Sequence record: AP025967.1
Source of the DNA: a plasmid
DNA: 64,000 bases
Direction: 5' to 3' (one strand)
Shown here: one piece after another, positions 1 through 34,536 of the stretch
How the letters are laid out: every line of letters begins with the position of its first letter
Position numbering within the stretch: position 1 is the first letter of the stretch
Position numbers and translations under genes: made by a program
Notes under the pieces: generated by a model
The model's input: the letters and a program-made list of their open reading frames with translations, nothing else
What the model was told of the DNA's origin: nothing
Database searches by the model: none

Positions 1-147
1 TCATTGGGTGGGTATTTAGCTCAAATGGCTTTGATATATTGCGATATTAAATATAAAGACAAATTATCTTTTAGCCCTAATGAAGTTTATACTTTTAATG
101 CCCCTAGTGTTTATGGTTGGAATTTTCCTAATATAGCTATATTTTAA
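1..147 (+). pseudogene. 5'-truncated duplicate of the lipase-like gene at 513..2015; nt 1-144 match 1009-1152, then diverge into an own stop (..NFPNIAIF*)
   Basis: Direct sequence identity with the internal segment encoding SLGGYLAQMALIYCDIKYKDKLSFSPNEVYTFNAPSVYGWNFPNIAI, in frame from nt 1, stop at 145-147. Confidence 0.6.
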
Positions 148-2481: not shown

Positions 2482-4014
2482 ATGGATGAAGAACTTTTTT
2501 GGGAAAACATTGTTCCAGTAGGACATATTAATGAAGAAACTTTAAAGAGCCAAATTTATATTAATAATATAAATTTTAGCACTTTACAATATGATGAAAC
2601 AGTGTTACCTACAGAATTAGAGTGTTGTTATAATGAATTTAAATACTATCAAAAAAGCAATAATGAAATAGCAACACTAGGTTGGGCTATTAGCTATCAA
2701 CTTCAAGTATTGTGGCAAAATAGCCCTAAGATAGATACAATACAAAATTATCATCTCCCCGTAAAACAAAATAAGCCTAATAATCCCCAAGCAGAACAAA
2801 GACTAAAAGAAATACAAAATTTCTTACAAAGTAAAGGTATAGAACCTCTTATTTTACATTATACCCCTTATCCAAACAACACACAAACCCAAGAGATGAA
2901 AAGACTAAGGCAAAATTCAGAGCGTTTTTCGCGCCATGTAGATAATAAAACAAATGAAGTAAGAGAAGAAAGGCGTTCTACTAAATTTTACACTACGCTA
3001 GATTGGGATAAGTTTTATTCTCATTTTCCTATAATAAAAAGACTAAGTAAAAAATTTCATACAAAAGAAGACATATACACTCAAAATTTTACAAAGCAAA
3101 TAGAAATAATCTTACAAAAAACTCATAATATTTTGATATTAAAAAATTTACCTCAAGGAGAATATAAATTTGATTTTGCGATCGATATAAAAGAAAATCG
3201 AAGCGATAAAAATGAAGAATCTTATTTCATCATTAAAGAAAATGATGAAATTTCAAAAGATTATAAACGCATTTTAGACTGTAAGCCCTATGAGCTTGAT
3301 ACTTTAAATTGTCAATATATAGGTGTGGGTGATGATGAGTTTTTCAGACAAATTTGGCAAAATTTAGGTATAAATATTGCAGAGAAATTTAAGGTAGATT
3401 TTTCTTATGCTAGACTTGATAAATTTATTTTTGCGACATCGCCATTTGGACTTACTTATAATACATATGAGACTTTAGAGCAAACTTATGATGAACTCAT
3501 GCAAGATCTATCTCTTTATGCTTGTAGTGGTAAATTTTCTTTTAATTTTGTTCCTTCAAAATTAAGCATTAAAAAAGAAATTCAAGGAGATAGAGAAAAG
3601 GTATCATACCGCGTTGATGAAATGCTTGTTTATGTTTATGATAGCTTTGATTTTTTAGATCAAGGACATGAATTTGATGATGAGGGAAATTTTATCAAGT
3701 TAGGACAACCTGTTGGAGCTTGGGATTTTAATACGAAAACTTTTAGCATAGAAGGTTCTTTATATCAAATGGCAACTTATAGAGAATGGCTTGAATGGGA
3801 AATAGATGGATATAAAATTGATTGTTCAATAAGCCCTCAAAGAATTCTGCAATCTCCAAAAACCAAACAATACTATCTTTACAATCAAGATTATCAAGAC
3901 TATCAAAAATTCACTCCTTATGGTTTGGACTTTAAACTTTATAGTAAAGATTTTATCACTAAACTTGATTTTAAAGATGAAGCTTATAATGTGCTTTATA
4001 ATACAGGAGTTTAA
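2482..4014 (+). CDS. hypothetical 510-aa protein, candidate toxin/effector; stop overlaps the start of the downstream 4-TM protein (TAAATG)
   Basis: ORF with RBS-like AGGA upstream. Its last 118 nt are duplicated in front of the second immunity-like gene at 4519-4636, a typical effector/immunity duplication signature. Confidence 0.4.
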   Translation: MDEELFWENIVPVGHINEETLKSQIYINNINFSTLQYDETVLPTELECCYNEFKYYQKSNNEIATLGWAISYQLQVLWQNSPKIDTIQNYHLPVKQNKPNNPQAEQRLKEIQNFLQSKGIEPLILHYTPYPNNTQTQEMKRLRQNSERFSRHVDNKTNEVREERRSTKFYTTLDWDKFYSHFPIIKRLSKKFHTKEDIYTQNFTKQIEIILQKTHNILILKNLPQGEYKFDFAIDIKENRSDKNEESYFIIKENDEISKDYKRILDCKPYELDTLNCQYIGVGDDEFFRQIWQNLGINIAEKFKVDFSYARLDKFIFATSPFGLTYNTYETLEQTYDELMQDLSLYACSGKFSFNFVPSKLSIKKEIQGDREKVSYRVDEMLVYVYDSFDFLDQGHEFDDEGNFIKLGQPVGAWDFNTKTFSIEGSLYQMATYREWLEWEIDGYKIDCSISPQRILQSPKTKQYYLYNQDYQDYQKFTPYGLDFKLYSKDFITKLDFKDEAYNVLYNTGV

Positions 4015-4518
4015 ATGGGAGAAGATATTATACTTTCTATTTTTTGGGGTTTATTTGGATTTATTCTTGCTTTTACTAATATAAAATTTTATCTTACAAC
4101 TTTAAGTGTTCTTGTTGTCTTTTCTATTTTAAATTATTGGATTAAAATTAACATAAAAGAATTTGTAAAATCTTATTTTTTAATATCTTTTATTATCTTT
4201 TTTATGGCTATTGTTATCATATTTTATCTTAGCTATGATCTTGAATTTTATAAATCGCTTGTATTACTTGATCCTCCAGAAATTGAAAAATTATCACCGC
4301 AAGAATATAGAGTGCGTAATTATTTTAAATTTTTAACCTTTGCAACTATGTTTTTTTTAGTAATCACATTTATCATATTTCCTTGTTTATTACAAGCTTA
4401 TTTATTTAAATGTTATAGCACAGGAGAAAAACGCAAAAAATTAAGTTGGCTTATAGGGTTTGTGTGTAATATCTTTTTATTAATTGCGAGTGTGTATGTG
4501 GTATATGAAAATCTTTAA
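4015..4518 (+). CDS. 4-TM membrane protein, candidate cognate immunity protein
   Basis: 167-aa ORF translationally coupled to 2482..4014. Paralogous to 4637..5140. Confidence 0.5.
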   Translation: MGEDIILSIFWGLFGFILAFTNIKFYLTTLSVLVVFSILNYWIKINIKEFVKSYFLISFIIFFMAIVIIFYLSYDLEFYKSLVLLDPPEIEKLSPQEYRVRNYFKFLTFATMFFLVITFIIFPCLLQAYLFKCYSTGEKRKKLSWLIGFVCNIFLLIASVYVVYENL

Positions 4519-4636
4519 AGACTATCAAAAATTCACTCCTTATGGTTTGGATTTTAGACTTTATAGTAAAGATTTTATCACTAAGCTTGATTTTAAAAAT
4601 AAAGCTTATAATGTGCTTTATAATACAGGAGTTTAA
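4519..4636. repeat. duplicate of the 3' end of 2482..4014 (compare 3897-4014), remnant left by tandem duplication of an effector-3'-end plus immunity unit
   Basis: Near-identical sequence (gactatcaaaaattcactccttatggtttgga...tacaggagtttaa) at both locations. Confidence 0.8.
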
Positions 4637-5140
4637 ATGGGAGATAGTATTGCACTTTCTATTGGCTGGGGTTTGATTTTGTTTATTGCTAGTTTTGCTA
4701 CTGTAAGAATTTATCTTATAACTTTAAGTATTCTTATTGCCTTTTCTATTTTAAATTATTGGATGAGAATTAACATAAAAGAATTTGTAAAATCTTATTT
4801 TTTAATATCTTTTATTATCTTTTTTATGGCTATTGTTATCATATTTTATCTTACTTATGATCTTGAAACCTCTAGATCGCTTGTATTGCTTGGTCCTCCA
4901 GAAATTGAAAAATTATCACCACAAGAGTATAAAGCGTATAATTATTTTGGATTTTTAAGTGGTATCACCATTGTCTTTTTAGCGATCACTTTTTTTATAC
5001 TTCCTTGTTTATTACAGGCTTATTTATTTAAATGCCATAGTACAGGAGAAAAATGCAAAAAATTAAGTTGGTTTATAGGGTTTGTGTGTAATGTTCCTAT
5101 ATTGATCTCAAGTGTTTATGTGATATATGAAAATCTTTAA
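4637..5140 (+). CDS. paralog of 4015..4518 (4-TM, 167 aa); orphan immunity-like gene preceded by a toxin 3' remnant
   Basis: Protein is ~70% identical to the 4015..4518 product by eye. Same length and TM layout. Confidence 0.5.
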   Translation: MGDSIALSIGWGLILFIASFATVRIYLITLSILIAFSILNYWMRINIKEFVKSYFLISFIIFFMAIVIIFYLTYDLETSRSLVLLGPPEIEKLSPQEYKAYNYFGFLSGITIVFLAITFFILPCLLQAYLFKCHSTGEKCKKLSWFIGFVCNVPILISSVYVIYENL

Positions 5141-5202: not shown

Positions 5203-7651
5203 ATGGATAGAGAATTATTTATAACAAGGCTTGCTTTTATAAACAATGATGAAATAGACACAATAGATAAAAATTCATCCATAGCATACTTAAAAGCCTT
5301 ATATCAATGTGAAAATTCCATAGCTATAAATTATAATCAAGAAGAGCTTTTCACCCAAGCTACCGCTATAAACAATCTAGGCTATAATTCTACTTTCACA
5401 AAAATCTTCATCCTAGATAAAGAAAAGCTCAATGATACCTATCTTGATGCTAGAAAAAGGCTTTATAAATCTATCAATACTTTAAAAGAAAAAAGAAATG
5501 AAAAAATAAAAGATATCCAAGACTATTTAAATAAAGAAATTTCCTTACAAGATAATCTAAATAATCAAAGCTTTAATACTAAGGAAAATGATGTTAATTT
5601 AATTTTAAACGAAGTATTTAACATAGAGCAATTTTATGATAAAAATACCAATACCATAGTATTAAAGACAAATAATATAAAAATCATATTCTTAGATAAA
5701 GTAAATTTACAAGATTTGCAAGATAATTCTAACAATACTTCTTTCATCTCTATGTCAAATTTGATCCATATTTATGATAATCATTGTGATATTTTTGCAA
5801 AAGATAGAAGTGTTTTGGATATAAAGGACATAGAAGAAAAATATCAAATAGATTTTAAAAGTTTAGATATAAAAATCTTCCTAAACTCCACCCTCCTTAC
5901 AGGCTCAAATGAACTTCCTAACAATCCTTTTTACTTTGGAGAATTAGATCAAGATAATACTATAAAACAAGATACACCTAGTTATTATTTTTCTCCTAAA
6001 GATGAAAGCAGTGGTTTAGGAAGACTTAGTATCTTTTATAAAAATGATGAACTTTGTTTGCTTAATTATTCTATATTAGAAAATTCTTTAAATATCAAAT
6101 TAGAATGTTTAAGCAAACAAAGCTTAGAGTATAAAGACTTAATTTCAAACACTTTAAAAGAACAAAAAACCACACAAGTAGATAAAAAACAAGCTATAGC
6201 TAAACTTCATGCTCTTTTAGAAAATCAAAACCTAGAATGTATCCATGGAGGTAAAGTCATACTTAAATCAAACAAAGGAAAAACTTTTAAAGATGATGGT
6301 GTGCCTATAATGCTAGAAAGTGATTTATTAAACTCTAGTATAGTAGCTTGTCCTAATACTATAGCAGGTGTAAGTGTTCCTTGTACTAAAGTTGTTAATG
6401 TAAAAGGATCCTTATCTCAAAAGAAAGTCAATAATGAATATGTAATCTTACAAGAACTCATCTCAGCTTGTAAAACAGATAAAGGCTTTGCTTTAAAAGT
6501 AAGCTTTACTCCTACTAAGTTTAAATTTGATCACAGCTTTGATCCTAAAGAGGGCTTAGGAGAACAAAGTAAAAATCAAATAGAGTTAAAAGAGCCTATA
6601 ATAAGACTTCATTATAAAAGTGATAGATTTCAAAAAGATAATTTACCTATCTATAATCTTTTAATCAATAATGAAAAAAAGAACAAAATAAGGCTTTAAA
6701 TGAATTTAATATAGATTTAAAAGATTTAAAAGATATAGAGGATATAAATATTCTTAATCAATTCAAACAAGACTTTAGTAAAGATTATGAATTTAAAGAA
6801 CTAAATCTTAGCTTTGATACTAATTTAATCAAACTTTATTTTATTATCCCAAAAAACATTGCTAAAGTTTATAAAAGTGCTTATAAGGAATTTGAAAATA
6901 AAGATTTAGGAGTAGGGTATTTTACACAGCTACATGAGTATGATAAAATCATCAAAAATGCTTTAGAAGATAATAAAGAATTAAACGAATATCATTTTAG
7001 TTTTTTAGCTCCTGCAAAAATGCAAAATTTAAAACTTCAAATCGCACAAGGACTAGATGAAATCTTAGAAGATGAAGATAGAAAACAAGAGCTTTATGTT
7101 TGTAAATTTGTGGTGGTAAATGGGGTTAGTGAAAACAATACTCAAGAAATTATCCCTGAAATGTTATAAGAATACAAACACAAGATGGCAGTGGGGAGTT
7201 TATTGAGATAGTATTTCCTAGTCAATTAGAACTCAATGATAAACCTTTGGAAGATGTGAGTTATACATTTGTTCCGGCTTTAAGAGGGATAAAGCAATTT
7301 TTTAAAGATACTGAGTATTTAAAACCCAGAACATTGACTAAAGATGAAGTGTTGCAGATAGTAGATAAACTGCCAAAAAATGTTCGAGATAAACGCAGGA
7401 GAATAGTTGAAAATAAAGAGGAATTAGACAAATTATGGAAAAAGTTAACTAAAAATTCTGAAGAGTTTGAAAATAAAGTAGATAAAAAATACGGACAGCC
7501 GATTTATATGAGAAAACTAGATGATCAAACTATTATACAATATAAGAAAACTTCTAAAAGCGGGGGTGAGACCATAGAGATAAATTCCAATAAGCCAAGA
7601 GGAAATCTTAAAACAATACATATAGAAAATGGGATAAAAAATGAAATATAG
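5203..7651 (+). pseudogene. polymorphic-toxin-like gene split over three successive reading frames (5203..6699, 6683..7169 with no start codon, 7160..7651). It contains a PAAR-like Cys motif (C.HGG...PIML...PCTKV) and a C-terminal toxin-like domain
   Basis: The second and third segments are long open frames lacking start codons, and each opens within a few nt of the previous stop. The first junction lies in an A7 tract (6674-6680). The N-terminal part is homologous to the mid region of the 1411-aa protein at 38579..42814 (KLNDTYL.ARK.LYKSI linker, SMSNLIHIYD.HCDIF). Confidence 0.5.
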
Positions 7652-14511: not shown

Positions 14512-14607
14512 AAAGATAGTAGATTTGGTAAATTTAAATCTTGTTAAGTTTATTATTTAGTTCAAATAAAAAATATAAAAAAATATAGAAAATCAATAGA
14601 AGAAGAG

Positions 14608-14833
14608 AAGTTTAGTTAAAAGTTTGTTTGGTAAGCCAAAGGGATTGTTCTAAACCCTGCAAAAGCAGGGGATACTCAATAAGCCTTGACATAGCAAAGC
14701 ATTAAGAGTATAATTATTAGAACAATGTTTAGCAATTTAATCACCGCCTTTCTAGGTTATGATTAATGCCAAAGGTAGCCGCCTTTGGCATCTACCTTTT
14801 ATAATTATACCAAACAAACTCTTTAACTTCTTA
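14608..14833. repeat. MITE-like element copy 1: imperfect ~24-bp terminal inverted repeats (aagtttagttaaaagtttgtttggta ... taccaaacaaactctttaacttctt) enclosing hairpins, a consensus promoter and a terminated ~90-nt transcript
   Basis: Same architecture and ~150 bp of near-identical sequence at 32478-32708. A third diverged copy lies at 32800-33036. Confidence 0.6.
14686..14714 (+). promoter_or_regulatory. consensus sigma70-type promoter TTGACA-17 nt-TATAAT inside MITE-like copy 1
   Basis: ttgaca(14686-14691), tagcaaagcattaagag spacer, tataat(14709-14714). A hairpin plus U-run terminator (gccaaaggtagccgcctttggc atctaccttttat) lies ~90 nt downstream. Confidence 0.5.
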
Positions 14834-14943
14834 AAACAGTCCATGAAAAGATTTTACTTTTTATTCTTTAGCACTTTGTTTTTTGCACCTTCATTTTTGC
14901 TTGGTGCAACTGAAATCTAATTTATACTTGGGGTTATGGCGAT

Positions 14944-17400
14944 GTGATGAATGAAATCATGCAAGCTGTTAAAGGAATAACCACTGAAACAGGCTATATC
15001 GTTAATGCAGCCTTAGCTATTTCATTATTGCTTTTTAGTATCAAAAAAGCAATGGATGGACAAACAAACCCTGTGTTTGAACTTGGAAAAATGTTTGTAC
15101 TTTTTGCTGTAGTGTGGTACATATTTTTAAGGGCGCCAAATGACAATAATCACCGCTTCATGATTCACGATGAAGTCACTAGCAAAGATTATGTCATTTC
15201 TCAAATTCCTATAGGCATAGGAAAAAGCTTTGCATTGATGACGCAATTTGAGAAGGTTATCCTAGAAGCTATGGAAAAACATTTTTCAACTCCACAATCT
15301 ACAAATTTTTCTAACGCAGGTTTAGGTTTTTCACTTCAAGTGATGAGTACTTTACCAAGTGTAAAGCTTTCGGCTATTGATGCAACTTTACAAAAAAATA
15401 TTGATTTTTATTTTAGAAACTGCGTTTCAGTAGGTATCTTGCTTAATCAACAAGGTAGAAATCTTTTTCAAAACTCTGATAATTTAATACAAGATCTTTT
15501 CACAAACATAGGCAATGGCTCTCAGCTTACTCCTTTGTTTGAAAATAACAATAATATTGAAAAACAAAGTGTTGTACCTTGTTCTGATGCAGGTCCTCAA
15601 ATCGTTGAAATGATTAAAAACGATACAGATGAAGCTATGAAGATTCATGCTGCTTTGCTTGGTATGGCGAATGATATGGCAAATTATGAGCAAAAGTTCT
15701 TAGGCGCTGCACAAATCTATAATGAACAAGCTGTAAGTGCTAGATCTTATTTGCAACAATCCATGATAATGCTTGCTTCTCAAGATGCAATCATTAATAC
15801 CGCTAAATCAGTAGGATTAAATCCTGCTTCTGTGGCTGCAAATACTGCTTATGCGGATCAGCAATTTTATGCAAGTATGCAAGCACAAGGACACTTGGCA
15901 CAAACTTATTTGCCTTTAGCTAAAGCTTATTTAACAGCTATTATCATAGGTTTGTCTTGGCTTGTTGCTTTGCTTTCTATTGTGTTTGGCTCTTATGCTC
16001 ATATTAAGATGTTTTTTACTCTATGTATTTGGATAGTACTTTGGACTCCTATACTTTGTATTATTAATTTTATAAATGATTTTAATCTTATGAATGTTGC
16101 ACAGGTGATAACAGGTGGAAAAGCAGCTTTAAGCTTAGGAGATAACATTCTTATATTCAAAGAAGTAGCAAATAGATCAAATTTCATGAATTATCTTGTG
16201 ATGAGTACTCCTGTTTTAGCTTATGCTATAGCTAAAGCAAGTGAACAAGGATTTGTAACTTTTGCTTCTGGATTATCTCAAGCTCTAACAGGTGCTTCAA
16301 GAGCTGCTGGAAGCTTTGCAAATCAGCAAGCTCTATCTACACAAACTAGCATTGCTGCTCCTAGAGGAGATGAAGTTTGGGCTGTGGATGCAGGTTATAA
16401 TACTCTTCAATCTTCGTTTGGTGTAGGTGGTAGAAGTTTTATGGGAACAAGAGATATGCAACATGGTGGCGAATTAGTTAAAGATAATATGACAGGAAGT
16501 TCCGCTGTAATCAATGCTAATGGTTCTATAGGTAATGCTTCTATTAAAGGTTTAAATGCTGGTATGACTGCAAGCAATTTAGAAACAAGACAACACGCTC
16601 TAAGTGATGCGATTCAAAATTCTAACCTATCTCAAAGAGCTTTAGAAGTTGCTAGTGGCAAAGGAGATAGCTTAGCCTTATCAGAAAACGATAGAAATAC
16701 TATCACCAAAGCATCACAACATGCTTTAGCTAATGCTTATTCTAAAGCAACAGGTGTAGATGTATCGCAAGAATCTGAAGATTGGTATCAAAAACTAAGC
16801 AAAGATCAAAAAGAAACATTCCAAAAATCATTCAATGAAAGTATTTCTAATGAAATTGGTAAAAATAGAGATGCAAGTGCTTCATTTAACAATCTTCTTA
16901 AAACAGGAAATGTTACAAATTCTGCTAGTATTAAAAGTTCTATGGATAGCTATAATGAAGCTAAAACACTTAATAATTCAGTGGGTTATGATGGCGGATC
17001 ATCTATCGTTCAAGGCTATATCAATGAAAATTATGGTGGCGTAGTTAATAAAGAAAATGTGGCTTCTGCTGTGAATGCTGTTGAAAATATGGCTGCAAGG
17101 GGAGATATGCAAGGATTATCACACTATGCAGGAGTAAACTCTAATGTCAATTCAAATGGATTACACGATCAATCAAAACATAATTATTATGATCCAAAAG
17201 GCGTTATGACTGATCACAATAAAGCCATAGATGATTTAAATTCAAGATATCAAGGTTTCTTAAAAACAAGAAATGCTCCTACTAAAATTGAATCAGAAGG
17301 AATAGCATTTGAGGTGCAAGAAGCAGCAGGTGCAACTGAGAAAAAAGCAGGAACTGCTATTAAAGAAAGAAATGAAAAAATCAATGATACTTATAAATAA
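14944..17400 (+). CDS. TraG-like conjugative transfer membrane protein (F-type TraG N-terminal domain-like)
   Basis: 818-aa ORF with N-terminal TM pair and a central cluster of TM helices, followed by a long Ser/Asn/Ala-rich soluble tail. The layout is typical of TraG/VirB6-like proteins of Campylobacter plasmids and integrated elements. The family call is by eye. Confidence 0.5.
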   Translation: MMNEIMQAVKGITTETGYIVNAALAISLLLFSIKKAMDGQTNPVFELGKMFVLFAVVWYIFLRAPNDNNHRFMIHDEVTSKDYVISQIPIGIGKSFALMTQFEKVILEAMEKHFSTPQSTNFSNAGLGFSLQVMSTLPSVKLSAIDATLQKNIDFYFRNCVSVGILLNQQGRNLFQNSDNLIQDLFTNIGNGSQLTPLFENNNNIEKQSVVPCSDAGPQIVEMIKNDTDEAMKIHAALLGMANDMANYEQKFLGAAQIYNEQAVSARSYLQQSMIMLASQDAIINTAKSVGLNPASVAANTAYADQQFYASMQAQGHLAQTYLPLAKAYLTAIIIGLSWLVALLSIVFGSYAHIKMFFTLCIWIVLWTPILCIINFINDFNLMNVAQVITGGKAALSLGDNILIFKEVANRSNFMNYLVMSTPVLAYAIAKASEQGFVTFASGLSQALTGASRAAGSFANQQALSTQTSIAAPRGDEVWAVDAGYNTLQSSFGVGGRSFMGTRDMQHGGELVKDNMTGSSAVINANGSIGNASIKGLNAGMTASNLETRQHALSDAIQNSNLSQRALEVASGKGDSLALSENDRNTITKASQHALANAYSKATGVDVSQESEDWYQKLSKDQKETFQKSFNESISNEIGKNRDASASFNNLLKTGNVTNSASIKSSMDSYNEAKTLNNSVGYDGGSSIVQGYINENYGGVVNKENVASAVNAVENMAARGDMQGLSHYAGVNSNVNSNGLHDQSKHNYYDPKGVMTDHNKAIDDLNSRYQGFLKTRNAPTKIESEGIAFEVQEAAGATEKKAGTAIKERNEKINDTYK

Positions 17401-17436
17401 TAATGCACTGAGTCTAGTTTTAACTAGGCTTAGTAT

Positions 17437-17691
17437 TTATACATATCCTAAAATATCTTTTTTTATAAAACTATAATCATCTTTATCTAATTCATCTAAT
17501 GGGCGATTAACAACTCTAACATTCTCTTTTAAAAACTTCTTGATTTTCAATAATGTATTTTTAGGATACAATTTGCTTAACCTATCTCTGATTAGATATA
17601 AAAGACAACAAGTTATTAAAACACTAACGATAGATGCAAATACTGCTAAATAAATAATTAAGTGTGCTTTATCCATCTTTATTCCTTTCAA
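17437..17691 (-). CDS. small membrane-anchored protein (84 aa)
   Basis: ORF with one N-terminal TM helix. Overlaps the downstream toxin gene by 4 nt. Confidence 0.3.
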   Translation of the reverse strand: MKGIKMDKAHLIIYLAVFASIVSVLITCCLLYLIRDRLSKLYPKNTLLKIKKFLKENVRVVNRPLDELDKDDYSFIKKDILGYV

Positions 17692-17969
17692 TATTTTTTA
17701 AATAACTTACTATGACTACCTAGTTTTAAAATATTTAGCTCTAACTCATTATTATGTTTTTGATAAATTAATAACAAGTTAGACTTTATATGACATTCTC
17801 TAAAATCTTTTAATACACCTTTTAATTGATGATCTTTATATTTAGGTTCTAAATTCTCATCATTAGAAAGTTTTACAATAACTTCATCAGTTATTTTACG
17901 CTCTTCATCGCTTATTTTTTTGTAAGCTTTTATAAAATCTTTATGGTAATAAATTTTATATTTTGCCAT
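17688..17969 (-). CDS. type II toxin, RelE/ParE superfamily (YafQ-like mRNA interferase)
   Basis: 93-aa protein whose C-terminal half (KDHQLKGVLKDFRECHIKSNLLLIYQ...LKLGSHSKLF) matches the YafQ/RelE pattern (.H.i.pDwlLIY......l.l.RtGsHs.LF). Overlaps the upstream antitoxin-like ORF by 14 nt. Confidence 0.65.
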   Translation of the reverse strand: MAKYKIYYHKDFIKAYKKISDEERKITDEVIVKLSNDENLEPKYKDHQLKGVLKDFRECHIKSNLLLIYQKHNNELELNILKLGSHSKLFKKY

Positions 17970-18213
17970 TTTGATAAGCTTTCACAAAGTCTTGATGCGA
18001 ATTAAAGCTTAATGCAGTATTGACTTTTTTTTCTTTATCAAGTTCTTTGCTTGCATTTAATATCTTACTTTCAAAACTACTCAACTTAGGCTTAGAAATT
18101 TTACATTTGGCATTTATGCTTTTTGCTAAACCCTTGAATGCAGGTAAAAAATCTTCATTAACATTTTCAATAATAAGAGTCATAAGCAACTCCTTTCTCA
18201 ATTTATATAACAT
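17956..18213 (-). CDS. DinJ/RelB-like antitoxin partner of the YafQ-like toxin
   Basis: Small ORF directly upstream of and overlapping the toxin. N-terminal I.ENVNEDFLPAFKGLA resembles the DinJ N-terminus. A degraded paralog N-terminus lies at 30217-30333. Confidence 0.45.
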   Translation of the reverse strand: MLYKLRKELLMTLIIENVNEDFLPAFKGLAKSINAKCKISKPKLSSFESKILNASKELDKEKKVNTALSFNSHQDFVKAYQNGKI

Positions 18214-18316
18214 AATTATACCATTTTTAATAATTTTTGCAAGTATTTTTGCTATAAAATGCCTATTTTTTAGTGGTTTGAAACGGATTTCTTTTTTTAT
18301 TTAACTATGTCAATTT

Positions 18317-18679
18317 TTAAGTGCTTATTTTATAAGACTTTATAGCGCTATTTGCAAGATCAGCTAAGAATTTACTTCTATTATCGCTTATTGTATCTAT
18401 TGCCTCTACTAAGCTTTTAGGCAAGGTAATATTAATTCTAATTTTTGCTTCATTATCAATAGGTTCTTTAATATAATCACCTTTTTCAAGCATAACTTCT
18501 AATGCTCCTTTAAATGCTTCTTTGAGATCTTTTAAGGCTTCTATTTCATTTTCACCATCTCCCATAATATAAGGGAAATCTTTATATCTTGCAAAATATC
18601 CTCCGCCATCTTTTTCATCAAGTTTTTTTATAATAATTTCATAAGGTAGATTAAGATAGTAATCTAAGTCTTTCATCAT
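18317..18679 (-). CDS. hicB: HicB-family antitoxin (N-terminal HicB fold plus C-terminal RHH-like DNA-binding tail)
   Basis: 120 aa. YY.NLPYEIIIKKLDEKDGGGYFARYKDFPYIMGDGENEIEALKDLKEA matches the HicB pattern. C-terminal LPKSLVEAID...SKFLADLANSAI matches a ribbon-helix-helix tail. Lies immediately downstream of hicA. Confidence 0.7.
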   Translation of the reverse strand: MMKDLDYYLNLPYEIIIKKLDEKDGGGYFARYKDFPYIMGDGENEIEALKDLKEAFKGALEVMLEKGDYIKEPIDNEAKIRINITLPKSLVEAIDTISDNRSKFLADLANSAIKSYKIST

Positions 18680-18940
18680 TCATTCTCCTGTTATAGCTTT
18701 TAAAACCATTTTGACATATATAGCCTTTATAGGGCGTTTAAATGGAATAGTAATAAGATCACATTCTTTTTTTCTGAATTGATAATGTGATCCGCCTTTA
18801 TTAAAACATTCATAACCTTCGCTTTCTAATAAAATCTTAAGCGTTTCAAAGCGCACATTGTTAGGATTATTTTTTAAATCTTTAATAATTTTATCTTTTT
18901 TACTCACTATAATATCCTTATAAGTATGTATTATACACAC
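18680..18940 (-). CDS. hicA: HicA-family toxin (YcfA-like mRNA interferase)
   Basis: KIIKDLKNNPNNVRFETLKILLESEGYE...KGGSHYQFRK...ITIPFKRPIKAIYVKMVLK is the HicA signature. Its stop abuts the hicB start. Confidence 0.7.
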   Translation of the reverse strand: MCIIHTYKDIIVSKKDKIIKDLKNNPNNVRFETLKILLESEGYECFNKGGSHYQFRKKECDLITIPFKRPIKAIYVKMVLKAITGE

Positions 18941-19083
18941 TTTTTATTAAGTATCACTTATAAACCGAACGCAATTCTTTTAATAAAGTTTAGATATAAT
19001 CTCACAAAACGCTTACTATGTCGTTTCATAGTTAAGCCTTTAGGGTTATTTCCGCCAAGAGTTAAAACTCAAGGCGGATTTTT

Positions 19084-19773
19084 ATGAAGGAAAGATTTAA
19101 AATGAGAAATTTAACTTTAGAAGAAAATATATTTTTAGCAAAAAGAAACCTTGTAGATATTATTTGGAAATCCGCGAATTTAGAAGGTGTAAATGTTACT
19201 TTTCCTGAAACTCAAATGATTATAGATGGCTTTAGTGTTCCTGATAAAACAATACAAGATTTAACAATAATTTTAAATCTCAAAAGAGCTTGGAATTATT
19301 TGTTTGATACCATTAATGAAAAAGTTAGTTTGAGTTTGATATAGGACTTTAATAGGATTGTAGGCAGAGATTTGGTTCATAAATCAGGATTTTTAAGAAC
19401 AGCTGATGTTAAAATAAGTGGAACAAATTTTAAACCAAAATTACCTATTGATTATGAGGTTAGTGAAAATATAGAAACAATTTTAAAAAATGAAAATAAA
19501 AAAGAAGTAGCATTGTATTTGATGTTATATCTTATGAGAAGTCAATTATTTTTTGATGGAAATAAAAGAACTTCAATGCTAATTGCTAATAAAATTTTAA
19601 TTGAAAATGGATTCGGTATTTTGGCAATTGCTAAGAATGATATGAATGAGTTTTTTACCCATCTTGTTAAATTCTATGAAACAAACAATAATTATGAAAT
19701 AAAACAATTTTGTAAAGAAAATTGTATTGAAACAATGATTTTTCATAATGATGAAGAAAAAAACAAATTATAG
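19084..19773 (+). pseudogene. Fic/Doc-family gene interrupted by an in-frame TAG (19342-19344); degenerate motif QLFFDGNKRTS (H to Q)
   Basis: The two ORFs 19084..19344 and 19372..19773 are in the same frame and read continuously across the TAG (...SLSLI*DFNRIVGRDLVHKSGFLRTADVKISG...). Doc-type FxDGNKRT motif is present. Confidence 0.6.
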
Positions 19774-20279
19774 GAAAGAATTGAGATAACACCCAAATTT
19801 TCATATAAAACATTAAAACTTATTCATTCAAAAATACTATAATTAAAGCGTATTAAGCATGGCTACTCTTTCGGTTATAAGAAGGAGACATGATGAGTAG
19901 TCATTGATTTTTTAGTTCTTGTCTTAGAATTAATTAACGAGATAATCAAGCTTGTTGATTATCTCACTTAAAAAACCGTTGAAAATTCTATAAAAACCAC
20001 ACTTAGTCTAAGCTTAATACAATTGTAACAAAAAACACTTAACCGAAAGAGGCGTGGCTTTCGGCTATTTGTTCTTGCAAAGTCTTTATCGTTAATATGT
20101 TCTATTATAAAACTTCTATAAAAATTTCTTTATTTTTTAGTTCCTCATAAACTAAATTGACAATTTTTTTATTGTATGATATAATTTAAAATCATTATAA
20201 GGGCGGATCGAGATCGCCCATCTTAAATACTATTTTAAGTAGCTATTCAAATCTTTTTCAAAACTCTCTATTAAATCAC

Positions 20280-20891
20280 TTAAAAAAGCATTGATTTTAT
20301 TTGGCATAACGCCTTAAAGGTATTATGTGATTTTGTGGTGATTCTAGGAGCTAAAGCCTTTTGATTTGTTATTTTTGTTTTATATAAATTTTCCCAGTGA
20401 AAACTTCTATTTCTGATTGTGAGTAAAAGGTTAAGAACAGTATTTGCTTTTTCTATATTGCTAAAACTATTTTTATATTTTTTATTATTTACATAGTGAA
20501 AGTAATATTCTTTGTTGTGTGCATAATATTTTTTAAAATTTATATTAGAAGAATTAATTATTTTTGCCTCTAAGTGTTCTAGCTTAATTATAAATATTAC
20601 ATCTCCTAAAGAAATTCTTGAAATGAGTTGATTGTTATCTAATATTTCTTTGTTTTGCAATTTAATTATTTTTTGTTTGATGTTTTCTTCGTTATAATTT
20701 CTTAACCATTCTAAATCTTTTTCTTTCATATGTTTATCTAGTAAATTTCTTAATACTAGTTCAAGTATTGCTATTTTTGTTGTTATGCTTGCAATCATTT
20801 TTAAATTATCAAAATGTTCCTAAATATTATTATAAGATTCTAATCTTTCTTTAGAAAACAAATATTCAAGATCGGTCTGTTCTGTTGGCAT
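20280..20891 (-). pseudogene. Abi_2-family abortive-infection-like gene with an in-frame TAG after codon 23 (plus-strand 20820-20822); a 172-aa ORF restarts at 20798
   Basis: N-terminal MPTEQTDLEYLFSKERLESYNNI* matches the Abi_2 start (fS.eRl..Y). Downstream LLTIRNRSFHWENL matches the Abi_2 IRN..aH motif. Confidence 0.5.
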
Positions 20892-21067
20892 GAATTTCTC
20901 TAATATTGGATTAATATTCTTAAATCATATCAAATTTTTACAAAAAATATTATTATTCACACTTGTAAGTACTTTTTTCAAGCTTTCTTTCCATTTCTTT
21001 TTTTGGAAATAAAATTATATGGTAAAATGACTTATCTCAAAAGCCTATTTTATCAATGTTTTCACTT

Positions 21068-31042: not shown

Positions 31043-31981
31043 ATGAAACTTAAAAATACTACAATAAGTGAAGATTTAGAGCGTTGGATAGAAGCTTATT
31101 TGAAACATATTCAAGCATTATCCTATTCAAATAATACTTTTTTACTTTATAGGCGTATTTTACTAGAATTTGTAGAATATTCTTTAGATTATCAAGATGA
31201 AATGCAAATAAACGATATAAAAACGACTTTTTTAGTCAATTTTCTTAATTATTTAGAAAATAATTCAAAAAATGGCAATAAACTATCAAAAAAAACAAAA
31301 ATAACTTATTTGAGAGCATTAACTAGCTTTTTTTCTTTTATAAGCGATAATAATGATGATTTGTTTATTTTTTCCTTTGATATGAAGAAAATTAGATTTA
31401 GAACAGAAAAATCAGAAGAAAAATTAAATTATCTTAATGAAAATGAAATTATAAGGCTAAATAATGTTTTAGAGAAAGAAAAAGCAAAAAAAGAAGTTTA
31501 CAATAGTTTTAGAAACTCTTTACTGATAAAACTTATGCTTTATGGAGGACTTAGAATTTCTGAAGCTTTAAATGTAAAACTTTGTGATTTTGAAGAGGTT
31601 GATGATGAAATATTAAAAATATCCATAATAGGCAAGGGCGGTAAAGAACAATTTGCATTTATTAAAAAAGAAGAAGTAGATGATGAGCTTGAATATTTTA
31701 AAGAAAATATCCAAGATAGTGATTACATAATGCAAACTAGCACAGGAAAACATTTAAACAGAAGTAATGCTTTTTTGATTGTAAATAATATTTACGCTAA
31801 AGCTTTGATCAGCAAAAAAGGACTTCATTTGCTTAGACACACTTTAGCCATGAGATTAACAGCCAAAGGAACAAACCTTGTGGTCATACAAAAAATTCTA
31901 AGACATGCAAATCTAAATACTACTACTATATATGCCAAAGCAACAAATGATACAATAAAAACTGCGTTATTGAATAATTAA
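31043..31981 (+). CDS. tyrosine site-specific recombinase/integrase (Xer/phage-integrase family)
   Basis: The C-terminal catalytic region has GGLRISEALN (R), LLRHTLAMRL (H-x-x-R) and LRHANLNTTTIYA (H, nucleophile Y). Confidence 0.75.
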   Translation: MKLKNTTISEDLERWIEAYLKHIQALSYSNNTFLLYRRILLEFVEYSLDYQDEMQINDIKTTFLVNFLNYLENNSKNGNKLSKKTKITYLRALTSFFSFISDNNDDLFIFSFDMKKIRFRTEKSEEKLNYLNENEIIRLNNVLEKEKAKKEVYNSFRNSLLIKLMLYGGLRISEALNVKLCDFEEVDDEILKISIIGKGGKEQFAFIKKEEVDDELEYFKENIQDSDYIMQTSTGKHLNRSNAFLIVNNIYAKALISKKGLHLLRHTLAMRLTAKGTNLVVIQKILRHANLNTTTIYAKATNDTIKTALLNN

Positions 31982-32023
31982 TTTTTCTAAAATTAATTAT
32001 TTACATAGACTTCTTTTTGAAGT

Positions 32024-32248
32024 CTATGCTGTGAATCTTTCTAATAAAAGTTTAGGTTCTCCGCGAAGTATTTTGATGAAATTTGCAATTCTTGATTGTA
32101 TCATTTCTACGGAATACATACCTCCTAAACCGCCTAAAGCATAAAATAATTCTTCGAAAATGTCTTCTTTGTTAAATTCAAGTTCTTCTATATCAATAAG
32201 ATCAGGAGTTCGGCTACATTTTTGTAAATTTTGATATATTTCAACCAA
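32024..32248 (-). CDS. hypothetical 74-aa protein
   Basis: ORF only. Confidence 0.25.
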   Translation of the reverse strand: MVEIYQNLQKCSRTPDLIDIEELEFNKEDIFEELFYALGGLGGMYSVEMIQSRIANFIKILRGEPKLLLERFTA

Positions 32249-32477
32249 AATATTAATTCTTTCTGGATTATTTTTAGTTTTTAGATAAGAATTTAAGTGT
32301 ATGATTAGGGTTTTTATGAGTTTTTCTCTATTTTTTTATTTTCAAGAAAACTCAAGAGGACTGTGATTTATAGTTAAAATAACCAAAAGAACATACTTGA
32401 AAAATTAATAATACAAAAAACATATACTTTTTAAAAAATAAAATTTTTCAAATATAGAAAATCAATAGAAGAAGAGA

Positions 32478-32708
32478 AGTTTAGTTAAAAGTTTGTTTGG
32501 TAAGCCAAAGGGATTGTTCTAAACCCTGCAAAAGCAGGGGATACTCAATAAGCCTTGACATAGCAAAGCATTAAGAGTATAATTATTAGAACAATTTTGA
32601 GCATTAAACTCACCTCCCTTCTGGGCGGTAAATTAACGCTAAAGGGTTGCAGCCCCTTTGGCGTTGCACCCTTTTATAATTATACCAAACAAATTCTTTG
32701 ACTTCTTA
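32478..32708. repeat. MITE-like element copy 2 (left ~150 bp identical to copy 1, right transcript part different)
   Basis: TIRs agtttagttaaaagtttgtttggta / taccaaacaaattctttgacttctt. Promoter ttgaca(32545-32550)-17-tataat(32568-32573). Terminator hairpin before the ttttataatt tail. Confidence 0.6.
32545..32573 (+). promoter_or_regulatory. consensus TTGACA-17-TATAAT promoter inside MITE-like copy 2
   Basis: Identical to the copy-1 promoter. Confidence 0.5.
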
Positions 32709-32799
32709 ATACATTTTATTTATGATTGAATCTTATCTTTTAGCATAAGCAAGAAAAATATAAATTAAAAAATAAAATAATTCAATAGAAAGGAAGATA

Positions 32800-33036
32800 G
32801 GCTTAGTTAAAAGTTTGTTTGATACCGCAGGTAACCCACTCCAGTTGCCCCAAAAATGGGGCTTGGTTAATATGCCTTGACTATAAATAAACAAAGCAGT
32901 ATAATAACCACTAGAATGAGTTGTACGAACCTCATTGAGTTACCTCCTTTCAGGGGTTTCACAATTTAGCCGTAGGGGGTCAGCCTGCGGCTTAAACCCT
33001 TAATGTAATTATACCAAACAAATTCTTTAACTTCTG
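32800..33036. repeat. MITE-like element copy 3 (diverged; same TIRs, hairpin, TTGACT-17-TATAAT promoter at 32875-32903, terminated transcript)
   Basis: TIRs gcttagttaaaagtttgtttga / taccaaacaaattctttaacttct. Terminator hairpin gccgtagggggtcagcctgcggc. Confidence 0.55.
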
Positions 33037-33169: not shown

Positions 33170-33385
33170 TAGCGAAAGTAGGAGTAATTCACAGTTTTCA
33201 TTGTTTTAAAATTTTTCTCTTTGTTATTAATAGATAATTTCGATATATCATATCTATCCCAAAAGATAAGCTCTAAGGGTCGTTGTAAAAAATGATAAGT
33301 TAAGCTTATAAAAATAATCAAAGCTATAAGCACACCACAAGGTATATAAAATCTTTTAAGTTTGTAAAAAGGTTTTTTTATTGTT
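33170..33385 (-). pseudogene. 5' remnant of a 42798..43562-like gene (IKKPFYKLKRFYIPCGVLIALIIFISLTYHFLQRPLELIFWDRY...) with ATA in place of the start ATG
   Basis: About 190 bp near-identical to 43440-43562, then unrelated sequence and a stop after ~70 codons. Confidence 0.5.
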
Positions 33386-33391
33386 TATCCT

Positions 33392-34393
33392 TTACTCTGC
33401 TTTAAGCTCTCCACCTTTAACCACAAGTCCATTAGAGTCTATAATTACTTCTACTCCACCTGCTTTAATGATAACACAATCAGGTTTTGCATTAATAATT
33501 GTTTCTCCTACCTGTATAGTCGCTTCGCTATCGGCTTTTAACTCATGAATAGTTTTTGCATAAGTTGTGATATTATCAGCTACCATGCTTGTATTTTTAT
33601 CACTTTCAAATCCTATGGATTCATTACTTGTAAAAAGAATATTATCTTTGCTTTTATAATCCATCTCTTTCTCGCTTAACACTTGCATTTTATCACTGAC
33701 ATTAATACCATAATGCCCCTCAACCACTTCCTTTTTATTCCCCTTCACATTTCTTATTTCATCTTTATGTATAATAGTATTTTGATTTGCACCTATTTCT
33801 ATGTCTTTGTTTTCTCCTACAAACTCATGAGAGTTTTTAGCCACTCTTACTTTATTATCTACTCCTACATTTAAGGTATTGCTTAATCCTACTATGGTAT
33901 CTTTAGATAAGCCTACATTAGTTAAGTATTCTCCTCCTACATTGACATTTTTAGCTAAGTCTATGGTTTGAGTATGAACCTTTTTAATCCTTTCATTATA
34001 AATTCCATCCACTATAGAATCTTTATCATTTAAAATTCTTTGAGTGAAATTATGTTGTACTAATTCATCATAATCCTTTTGGGCTTTTAAATAAATTTGT
34101 TCTTTATCTTTTATATTTGAGAGGGTAAGTTCATTATAACCTTCTTCATTAACACCTATGGTTTTAGAAGAAAGAGAAGTTTGGTGATCATTAAAAGGAA
34201 GATTTACTAAACTTGGATTAGCCCCATTATACAAACTAGAGCTCACATAAGGTTTATCTATATCATCATCTAAAAAAGAAATAATCACTTCATCTCCTAA
34301 CTTTCTTTGATAAGGGCTTTAGTGATTTTAAAGGGTAGGGGATTTGAAGTAGAATTTAAAATATCAAGACTCATATAAGAATTAAGGGACATT
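33392..34393 (-). pseudogene. vgrG: vgrG remnant: the first ~31 codons of vgrG fused out of frame to its last 298 codons, an internal deletion of ~1.5 kb
   Basis: 33337-34299 is near-identical to 47864-48826 (the encoded 298 aa are identical to the VgrG C-terminus). 34300-34407 is near-identical to 50342-50449, which carries the vgrG start and upstream region. Confidence 0.7.
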
Positions 34394-34536
34394 GAAGATC
34401 CTTTTAGGGGTTGAGTTTATGGTGTTTATAATTTGGTATAAATCCACTATGTTTTTAATTTTTATATTTATTATTTTAACACAAATAGTCTAAATTTGAG
34501 TAGAAAAAAGGAATGGCTTATTTTTGTTATTAAAAT

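Follow-up and report, generated by a model that had tools for sequence, protein, structure and literature searches.

Antisense-controlled toxin units are a common device for plasmid maintenance. The hok/sok locus of plasmid R1 is a plasmid-borne unit of type I, in which the toxin mRNA is folded 5′ to 3′ and is inert until it is processed, and in which killing follows loss of the plasmid. The described system that is closest in architecture to the element considered here is aapA/IsoA of Helicobacter pylori (Arnion et al. 2017, PMC5416894), a member of the same phylum. It combines a small-peptide toxin with an antisense RNA of ~80 nt lying over the 5′ untranslated region (UTR) and start codon, and is found in multiple and tandem copies on chromosomes, integrative and conjugative elements (ICEs) and plasmids (PMC5416894). 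The present analysis concerns a stretch of 64,000 nucleotides of plasmid DNA (record AP025967.1), referred to below as the window. It is 100% identical across 601 bp to pCjS36-like records and represents a segment of a Campylobacter jejuni/coli megaplasmid. A repeated element of ~230 bp occurs three times in the window, always in plus orientation, at 14608-14833, 32478-32708 and 32800-33036, the positions given in the original prediction.

That prediction regarded the element as a mobile small RNA (sRNA) cassette resembling a miniature inverted-repeat transposable element (MITE). The results below indicate that each copy is very probably a type I toxin-antitoxin module, AapA/IsoA-like in architecture. 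The earlier reading missed a minus-strand promoter, a Shine-Dalgarno (SD) sequence and a conserved open reading frame (ORF) of 19-23 aa; once these are recognized, the plus-strand sRNA becomes an antisense antitoxin and the supposed 5′ hairpins become the 3′UTR of the toxin mRNA. Three features by which type I systems are recognized were found, namely a gene for a small hydrophobic peptide with its own SD and start codon, a cis-encoded antisense RNA with its own promoter that overlaps the toxin translation start, and a toxin mRNA whose fold hides the SD and/or pairs its 5′ and 3′ parts over a long distance. The whole modules extend from 14590 to 14833 (copy 1; toxin on the minus strand and antitoxin on the plus strand, delimited from the repeat family, the alignment and a strong fold on both strands), from 32460 to 32708 (copy 2; repeat family and alignment) and from 32790 to 33036 (copy 3, in tandem with copy 2; sequence and alignment).

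A hydrophobic-peptide gene on the minus strand

On its minus strand each copy carries, from right to left, an extended -10 promoter (TGGTATAAT), an SD within a hairpin and an ORF for a hydrophobic peptide of 19-22 aa. In copy 1 the promoter is situated at 14804-14812 (predicted transcription start site (TSS) ~14798; the homologous TSS of plasmid pTet is 26600(-)), the SD region AGAAAGGCGGTG at 14742-14753, inside the hairpin, and the ORF MLNIVLIIILLMLCYVKAY, of 19 aa with a TTG start and a TGA stop, at 14676-14735. The promoter of copy 2 lies at 32679-32687 (predicted TSS ~32673), its SD AGAAGGGAGGTGAG at 32609-32622 and its 19-aa ORF MLKIVLIIILLMLCYVKAY, which begins with ATG, at 32545-32604. 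For copy 3 the corresponding positions are 33008-33016 (predicted TSS ~33002), 32939-32951 (SD GAAAGGAGGTAAC) and 32867-32935, the ORF MRFVQLILVVIILLCLFIVKAY running for 22 aa from ATG to TAA. The promoters of copies 2 and 3 were likewise assigned by homology with pTet.

It is apparent that the element is not confined to this locus. Matches to the core of copy 3 are present in 269 Campylobacter plasmids, among them pTet of strain 81-176, and a scan by pattern, covering one genome per species, yielded 69 loci, of which ~57 are true homologues. These derive from many Campylobacter and enterohepatic Helicobacter species, often with several copies per genome, some in tandem. The copy-number check attached to the original prediction thus showed the element to be multi-copy and widespread. 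Every one of the ~57 homologues has the minus-strand promoter, followed by a hairpin, an SD (AAAGGAG or GGAGGTG) and, 4-8 nt further on, ATG or TTG; the ORF is kept in all of them, with 19-23 codons and the C-terminus IILLCII(V/A/I)VKAY-stop. The remaining 12 loci, which belong to other phyla and match the promoter by chance, lack this ORF, SD and hairpin. Among 54 distinct copies the ATTATA of the minus-strand -10 is nearly invariant, and the ORF frame is free of stops in 53/54 copies, while frame 2 contains stops in 51/54. In the 40 nt that precede the conserved part, ATG codons are distributed 56:0:1 over frames 0:1:2.

The modules would define a type I toxin family that matches nothing in Pfam, NCBIfam or Rfam, with a range covering Campylobacter and enterohepatic Helicobacter. 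An Rfam scan gave no hit at the gathering score for the window and none at E<=1 for four homologous loci, in agreement with the earlier statement that the element is neither a tRNA nor an Rfam family. The peptide motifs were not found in the literature searched.

The peptides differ from those of the described systems. AapA peptides are ~30 aa long (30 aa is the family consensus length) and lysine-rich, whereas those of the present family are 19-23 aa long, almost purely hydrophobic, end in VKAY and are unrelated in sequence. Arnion et al. (2017, PMC5416894) also report one aapA/IsoA system carried by a C. jejuni plasmid, which might be a member of the present family. Hok has ~50 aa and depends for its translation on a leader ORF (mok), Sok forms its duplex at a site upstream of the toxin ORF, and there is no sequence similarity to either. 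Closer in size is the Ibs/Sib family of Escherichia coli, also a repeat family with cis-antisense control, in which IbsC (MMRLVIILIVLLLISFSAY) is a hydrophobic peptide of 19 aa ending in AY. IbsC and the copy 1 toxin are identical at 8/19 positions (permutation p ~0.007, for a comparison chosen after the fact). However, SibC spans the whole of the ibsC ORF, while the antisense TSS of the present modules lies inside the ORF, ~5 codons from its start.

The antisense RNA and the folded mRNA of the probable toxin

The consensus sigma70 promoter that first drew attention to the element is on the plus strand. It has the sequence TTGACA-17-TATAAT at 14686-14714 in copy 1 (predicted TSS ~14722) and at 32555-32583 in copy 2 (predicted TSS ~32591), and TTGACT-17-TATAAT at 32877-32905 in copy 3 (predicted TSS ~32913). 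The promoter had been called perfect in every copy; this holds for copies 1 and 2 (12/12 positions), copy 3 having 11/12. Such promoters are indeed rare, with four TTGACW-17-TATAAT sites in the 64-kb window against 0.15 expected. The conserved plus-strand motif AATAAGCCTTGAC reads GTC AAG GCT TAT TAG on the other strand (V K A Y stop), which places the plus-strand promoter inside the toxin ORF. The antisense promoter of aapA/IsoA is situated in the same way (here the -35 and -10 fall within 14676-14735 and its equivalents), although the antitoxin promoter of the present family differs in having a full -35.

The plus-strand RNA, of ~80 nt, is a perfect complement of the toxin 5′UTR, SD and start codon and covers the first ~5 codons, the two convergent promoters being ~77-82 nt apart. 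In copy 1 it is predicted, from its pTet homologue, to run from 14722 to 14798 (~77 nt), with a terminal hairpin at 14766-14791; the 3′ hairpins of copies 2 and 3 are at 32635-32665 and 32968-32992. A GC-rich hairpin with a U-run terminator had been ascribed to each copy. Copy 1 alone passed a simple terminator scan (hairpin 14766-14791 plus CTACCTTTTA); the T-run of copy 2 begins ~8 nt past the stem, and copy 3 has none.

Transcription of the homologue on pTet has been mapped by differential RNA sequencing (dRNA-seq; Dugar et al. 2013, PMC3656092). A plus-strand TSS at 26519, with GCCTTGAC...GTATAAT upstream, has a step height of 85985, the largest on the plasmid, and is convergent with a minus-strand TSS at 26600, with TGGATATAAT upstream and a step height of 483 (PMC3656092). 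The plus-strand start lies 8 nt past TATAAT, so that the promoter is functional in this homologue, as had been anticipated. Its signal is 178-fold above that of the minus-strand start, which fits an antitoxin held in excess. The transcript has the same promoter sequence as the plus-strand RNA of the window and corresponds to CJpt2, an 82-nt sRNA candidate of C. jejuni 81-176 (Dugar et al. 2013, PMC3656092). It differs in having been published only as an sRNA candidate and as a TSS internal to cmgB5, and the main text of that paper mentions neither a toxin ORF nor an antitoxin role for it (PMC3656092). The present reading would thus give a new meaning to a published orphan sRNA and to the strongest transcription start of pTet.

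Copies 1 and 2 were said to be identical on the left and to diverge later, and the alignment agrees: they are identical in the aligned left part, through ...TTATTAGAACAAT, and divergent afterwards. Over 14590-14726 and 32460-32596 they have the toxin C-terminus, the 3′UTR and the antitoxin promoter in common. They differ in the region of antisense overlap, that is, in the SD, the start codon (TTG vs ATG) and the 3′ hairpin. A chromosomal copy of Campylobacter volucris (locus L063 of the scan) has a peptide like that of copy 1 and an overlap region like that of copy 2. This mixture suggests, from sequence comparison, either recombination or selection for antitoxins that do not cross-react.

The element folds strongly on either strand (z about -8 relative to shuffled sequences). 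The strand that folds was assigned from non-Watson-Crick pairs. In the hairpin left of the plus-strand promoter, A.C combinations outnumber G.T on the plus strand (30 vs 9); since A.C on the plus strand corresponds to G.U in minus-strand RNA, this hairpin folds in the minus-strand RNA. The right-hand hairpin, which is transcribed on both strands, shows both kinds of wobble (17 vs 14), and RNAalifold found compensatory changes in 7/9 of its pairs. When RNAalifold was applied to a MAFFT alignment of 56 antitoxin regions it recovered the 3′ hairpin alone, because the subfamilies misalign, and helix tests on each copy were used in its place. The two hairpins described as 5′ features are therefore real and covarying, but are not 5′ features, since they form the 3′UTR of the toxin mRNA; an example is the GC hairpin CCCTGC-AAAA-GCAGGG of copy 1 (14655-14670, minus strand), which covaries across copies.

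As in aapA/IsoA and hok/sok, a stem-loop that sequesters the SD is combined with a long-distance 5′-3′ interaction in the toxin mRNA. In copy 1 the 3′UTR segment 14644-14653 (minus strand) pairs with the coding segment 14717-14726. The pairing of the first codons with the 3′UTR is copy-specific; for example, copies 1 and 2 use CAUUGUUCUAA:UUAGAACAAU, copy 3 uses ACUCAUUCUAG:UGGAGUGGGU, and AAAUUCAUCUUG:CAAGAUGAAUUU occurs in Helicobacter. Its mean energy is -13.2 kcal/mol for cognate partners against -7.2 kcal/mol for non-cognate ones, and a median of 5.7% of non-cognate 3′UTR partners bind as well as the cognate. The interaction covaries, its wobbles are G.U in minus-strand RNA only, and minimum-free-energy folds, which also place the SD in its stem-loop, contain the same pairing. 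A separate test for pairing of the SD with the 3′ tail of the toxin mRNA was not significant. The SD-like sequence AGAAAGGAG in the left flank was also considered as an anti-SD at the 3′ end of the toxin mRNA, and was rejected for this role (duplex vs shuffles, mean z -0.37, not significant).

The closed fold and the repeated consensus promoter had at first suggested a promoter or priming signal of the Frpo/ssi type, active when the plasmid enters a recipient as single-stranded DNA (ssDNA). Frpo elements are also repeated, ~300 nt long and equipped with consensus boxes, and the present element is a repeated, highly structured sequence of ~230 bp with a consensus -35/-10 on a conjugative plasmid, its pTet copy adjoining ssb. 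Three findings led to the rejection of this idea. The pTet start sites show the promoter to be strongly active in cells under ordinary growth, the strand test on wobbles indicates minus-strand RNA and not ssDNA of the transferred strand, and copies are also situated in chromosomal housekeeping regions. Moreover, the -35 and -10 occupy small separate hairpins or loops, not a single long duplex. An Frpo/ssi signal is accordingly considered exceedingly improbable.

For the toxin-antitoxin module, the gene layout, the two promoters with start sites mapped in the pTet homologue, and the conservation of the ORF and mRNA fold were observed directly; the mode of action is proposed by analogy. Sequence and comparison show the toxin mRNA to be transcribed on the minus strand from the extended -10 promoter at the right end, and to consist of a 5′ hairpin, the SD in its stem-loop, the ORF for a very hydrophobic peptide and a 3′UTR folded onto the first codons. 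The consensus promoter within the toxin ORF yields the ~80-nt antisense RNA, on the evidence of sequence and, for the pTet homologue, of mapped transcripts. This RNA, being abundant, would pair with the toxin mRNA, stop ribosome binding and trigger cleavage of the duplex, as in hok/sok and aapA1/IsoA1. Were the plasmid or ICE lost, the short-lived antitoxin would decay first, the membrane peptide would be made, and the cell would be killed or arrested. The modules would in this way stabilize the megaplasmid. Unannotated modules of this kind reside on Campylobacter plasmids that carry tetracycline resistance (pTet) or type VI secretion (megaplasmids), and they offer a testable reason for the stable upkeep of both.

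Several observations weigh against this interpretation. Eight family peptides of >=20 aa gave no match at E<=10 in Pfam or NCBIfam, known type I toxin models included; no curated model of Ibs or another type I toxin was matched in these databases, and BLASTP gave no alignment with IbsC. The simple terminator scan found no terminator for the toxin mRNA. The transcript evidence comes from the pTet homologue, and CJpt2 was not visible on Northern blots (Dugar et al. 2013, PMC3656092). Translation of the peptide, its toxicity and its neutralization by the plus-strand RNA are inferred. Finally, the toxin-antitoxin model leaves the outer inverted repeats of the window copies unexplained.

Repeat borders and genomic setting

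The inverted-repeat ends reported earlier are real. They measure 24-28 bp in the window copies and have the form AGTTTGTTTGGTA / TACCAAACAAAC, with AGTTTGTTTGGTA at 14621, 32490 and 32812 on the plus strand and at 14808, 32683 and 33012 on the minus strand; the left arm of copy 1 (14606-14633) has its partner at 14808-14832. Since the right arm precedes the toxin TSS, the arms can pair only in plus-strand read-through RNA or in DNA. Such ends are what a non-autonomous transposon would show, that is, a MITE with an sRNA gene, mobilized when a transposase recognizes its terminal inverted repeats, a state that could coexist with toxin-antitoxin content. Some Campylobacter relatives also have them, another Campylobacter subfamily having different inverted ends, AAGTTTAAGTAGG/CTTACTTAAACTT, that are still complementary. 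Copies are present at unrelated loci, including housekeeping intergenic regions of Helicobacter, and the TraG-N homologues of Campylobacter upsaliensis and Campylobacter iguaniorum have no module upstream.

The borders, however, are not those of a transposon. Repeat D3 begins at 14561 and 32430, so that copies 1 and 2 remain alike for ~47 bp past the left arm, and ATGAAA(A)GATTTT is common to copies 1 and 3 beyond the right arm. Similarity between copies past both inverted repeats shows that the repeat unit is not bounded by them. No flanking direct repeats representing a target-site duplication were found around the window copies, and the window contains no matching transposase or solo ends. 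Most members of the family, comprising the pTet and Helicobacter types, lack such ends, and the arm sequences vary between subfamilies, unlike transposase binding sites. For the site upstream of TraG-N, only distant module-free homologues were found and no clean excision site. Flanking inverted repeats were also tried as a property of the whole family and rejected, mismatched flanks binding as well as matched ones in what was a weak test, the sequence windows used having clipped the inner arms. These results speak against the mobile cassette of the original prediction, and a MITE is regarded as improbable. The Correia/NEMIS-type MITEs of Neisseria are likewise short, promoter-bearing repeats that have inverted ends and lie next to genes. 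They have conserved ends, a TA target duplication and hundreds of copies but no internal gene pair, whereas the window elements have ragged borders, no duplication and a complete toxin-antitoxin gene pair.

The modules of Campylobacter plasmids are situated at the translation starts of exported type IV secretion system (T4SS) genes and point in the same direction as these genes. In the window one copy precedes the TraG-N gene; on pTet the module is embedded at the 5′ end of virB5; a 26.5-kb Trb plasmid has two modules ahead of trbJ and one within trbG; and another module is fused to TrbM. The 53-kb record of this Trb plasmid (L075, NZ_AP028405.1) is a head-to-tail dimer of ~26.5 kb, its genes and modules recurring at +26566. 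The antitoxin promoter is co-directional with the flanking T4SS genes, which makes the module a strong internal promoter as well.

This arrangement, and the classification of the pTet plus-strand TSS as internal to cmgB5 (Dugar et al. 2013, PMC3656092), could be taken to indicate a non-toxin regulatory cassette of T4SS operons, in which convergent promoters and a structured leader tune virB5, trbJ or traG through antisense control or transcriptional interference, a scheme resembling prgQ/prgX of pCF10; the ORF would then be incidental or a leader peptide. Yet in Helicobacter the same module lies between chromosomal housekeeping genes (e.g. radA, tatD, dcd, dps and flagellin), far from any T4SS, and the ORF, SD and frame are conserved in all copies, which is unlike an incidental ORF. 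A purely regulatory cassette is therefore judged highly improbable, and the toxin-antitoxin module is retained as the preferred reading.

Some of these modules are read through by the host gene. Over 201 nt, 12/54 copies are open in the plus-strand frame that reads the promoter as LISLDYNYTKEYN; these are exactly the gene-embedded copies, the intergenic ones carrying 1-9 stops. At a recurrent position a stop is avoided by AAAG[G/C/A]AG in place of AAAGTAG, a change that is synonymous in a Leu codon of the toxin. Three diverged virB5 genes lack a canonical start codon between module and signal peptide, and translation must consequently run through the module. As annotated, the embedded proteins open with ~70 residues (…LISLDYNYTKEYN…) specified by the strand opposite the toxin gene, after which the signal peptide begins. 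Such modules, which follow the start codon of an exported T4SS protein in frame, are found in L003 (5953-6924, pTet virB5/cmgB5) and L075 (8429-9589, trbG), and also in L007, L014, L016, L032, L040, L054 and L072. The in-frame virB5 and trbG copies imply that several RefSeq T4SS proteins begin with ~70 residues from the reverse strand of a toxin gene, an unusual dual-coding arrangement for T4SS genes.

Campylobacter copies with inverted-repeat ends have a different setting. The strong SD-like sequence AGAAAGGAG is located just to their left, and the ATG of the next gene, which has no SD of its own, follows ~10-15 nt to the right. This order is seen in the window (14590-14607 and 14833-14847) and in the flanks of L004, L012, L019, L022, L025, L033, L037, L046, L063 and L066. 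The module thus seems to have been placed between an SD and its start codon; that the arms serve a split ribosome-binding site is a speculation.

A tentative extension of these observations, considered rather unlikely as it stands, is that a selfish toxin-antitoxin unit inserts specifically where translation of exported T4SS genes begins, and that it is accommodated at such sites by either of two arrangements. In the first, it would be kept in frame, and free of stops through changes synonymous in the toxin, as an N-terminal extension of ~70 aa in VirB5, TrbG, TrbM and SLT-like proteins, so that one strand of the same DNA would specify a toxin and the opposite strand a portion of a secretion protein. 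In the second, between SD and ATG, pairing of the inverted repeats would loop the 230-nt insert out of the mRNA and rejoin the SD to the start codon. Either way, loss of the module would cost the host operon the gene as well, and the distal T4SS genes would be driven by the strong promoter of the module.

Other features of the window

The TraG-N gene that follows copy 1 is disrupted at 14845-14960, where an ORF for the signal peptide (MKRFYFLFFSTLFFAPSFLLGATEI-stop) is split from the ORF for the body of the protein (GTG at 14944). The split results from a 13-nt deletion relative to Campylobacter coli LMG 9860 and C. volucris, and the gene is probably frameshifted.

A fourth perfect promoter, TTGACA-17-TATAAT with a TG extension, is found at 20157-20215, followed by a short GC hairpin (GGGCGGATCGAGATCGCCC). 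It points into the 3′ end of the minus-strand gene at 20280-20798 and, from its position, may produce another small antisense RNA. At 22340-22562, near the ORF at 21068-22075, five overlapping 53-nt repeats in an 11-nt register (TTCAACTTAACTACAAC…) resemble iterons and may represent a replication origin.

Directly after copy 3, the segment 33080-33200 is GC-richer and apparently structured (…GGAACCTCCTACTTCTAAGCGTTAGCGAAAGTAGGAG…). Segments of 100-300 nt downstream of copy 3 recur at ~99% identity ~14-16 kb away, in a region associated with vgrG and the type VI secretion system (33294-33625 vs 47821-48152; 43475-43573; 34300-34408 vs 50343-50451). Direct repeats with 89-100% identity are also present at the left end of the window (1-140 vs 1011-1150, 3896-4195 vs 4518-4817 and 2191-2322 vs 5875-6006).

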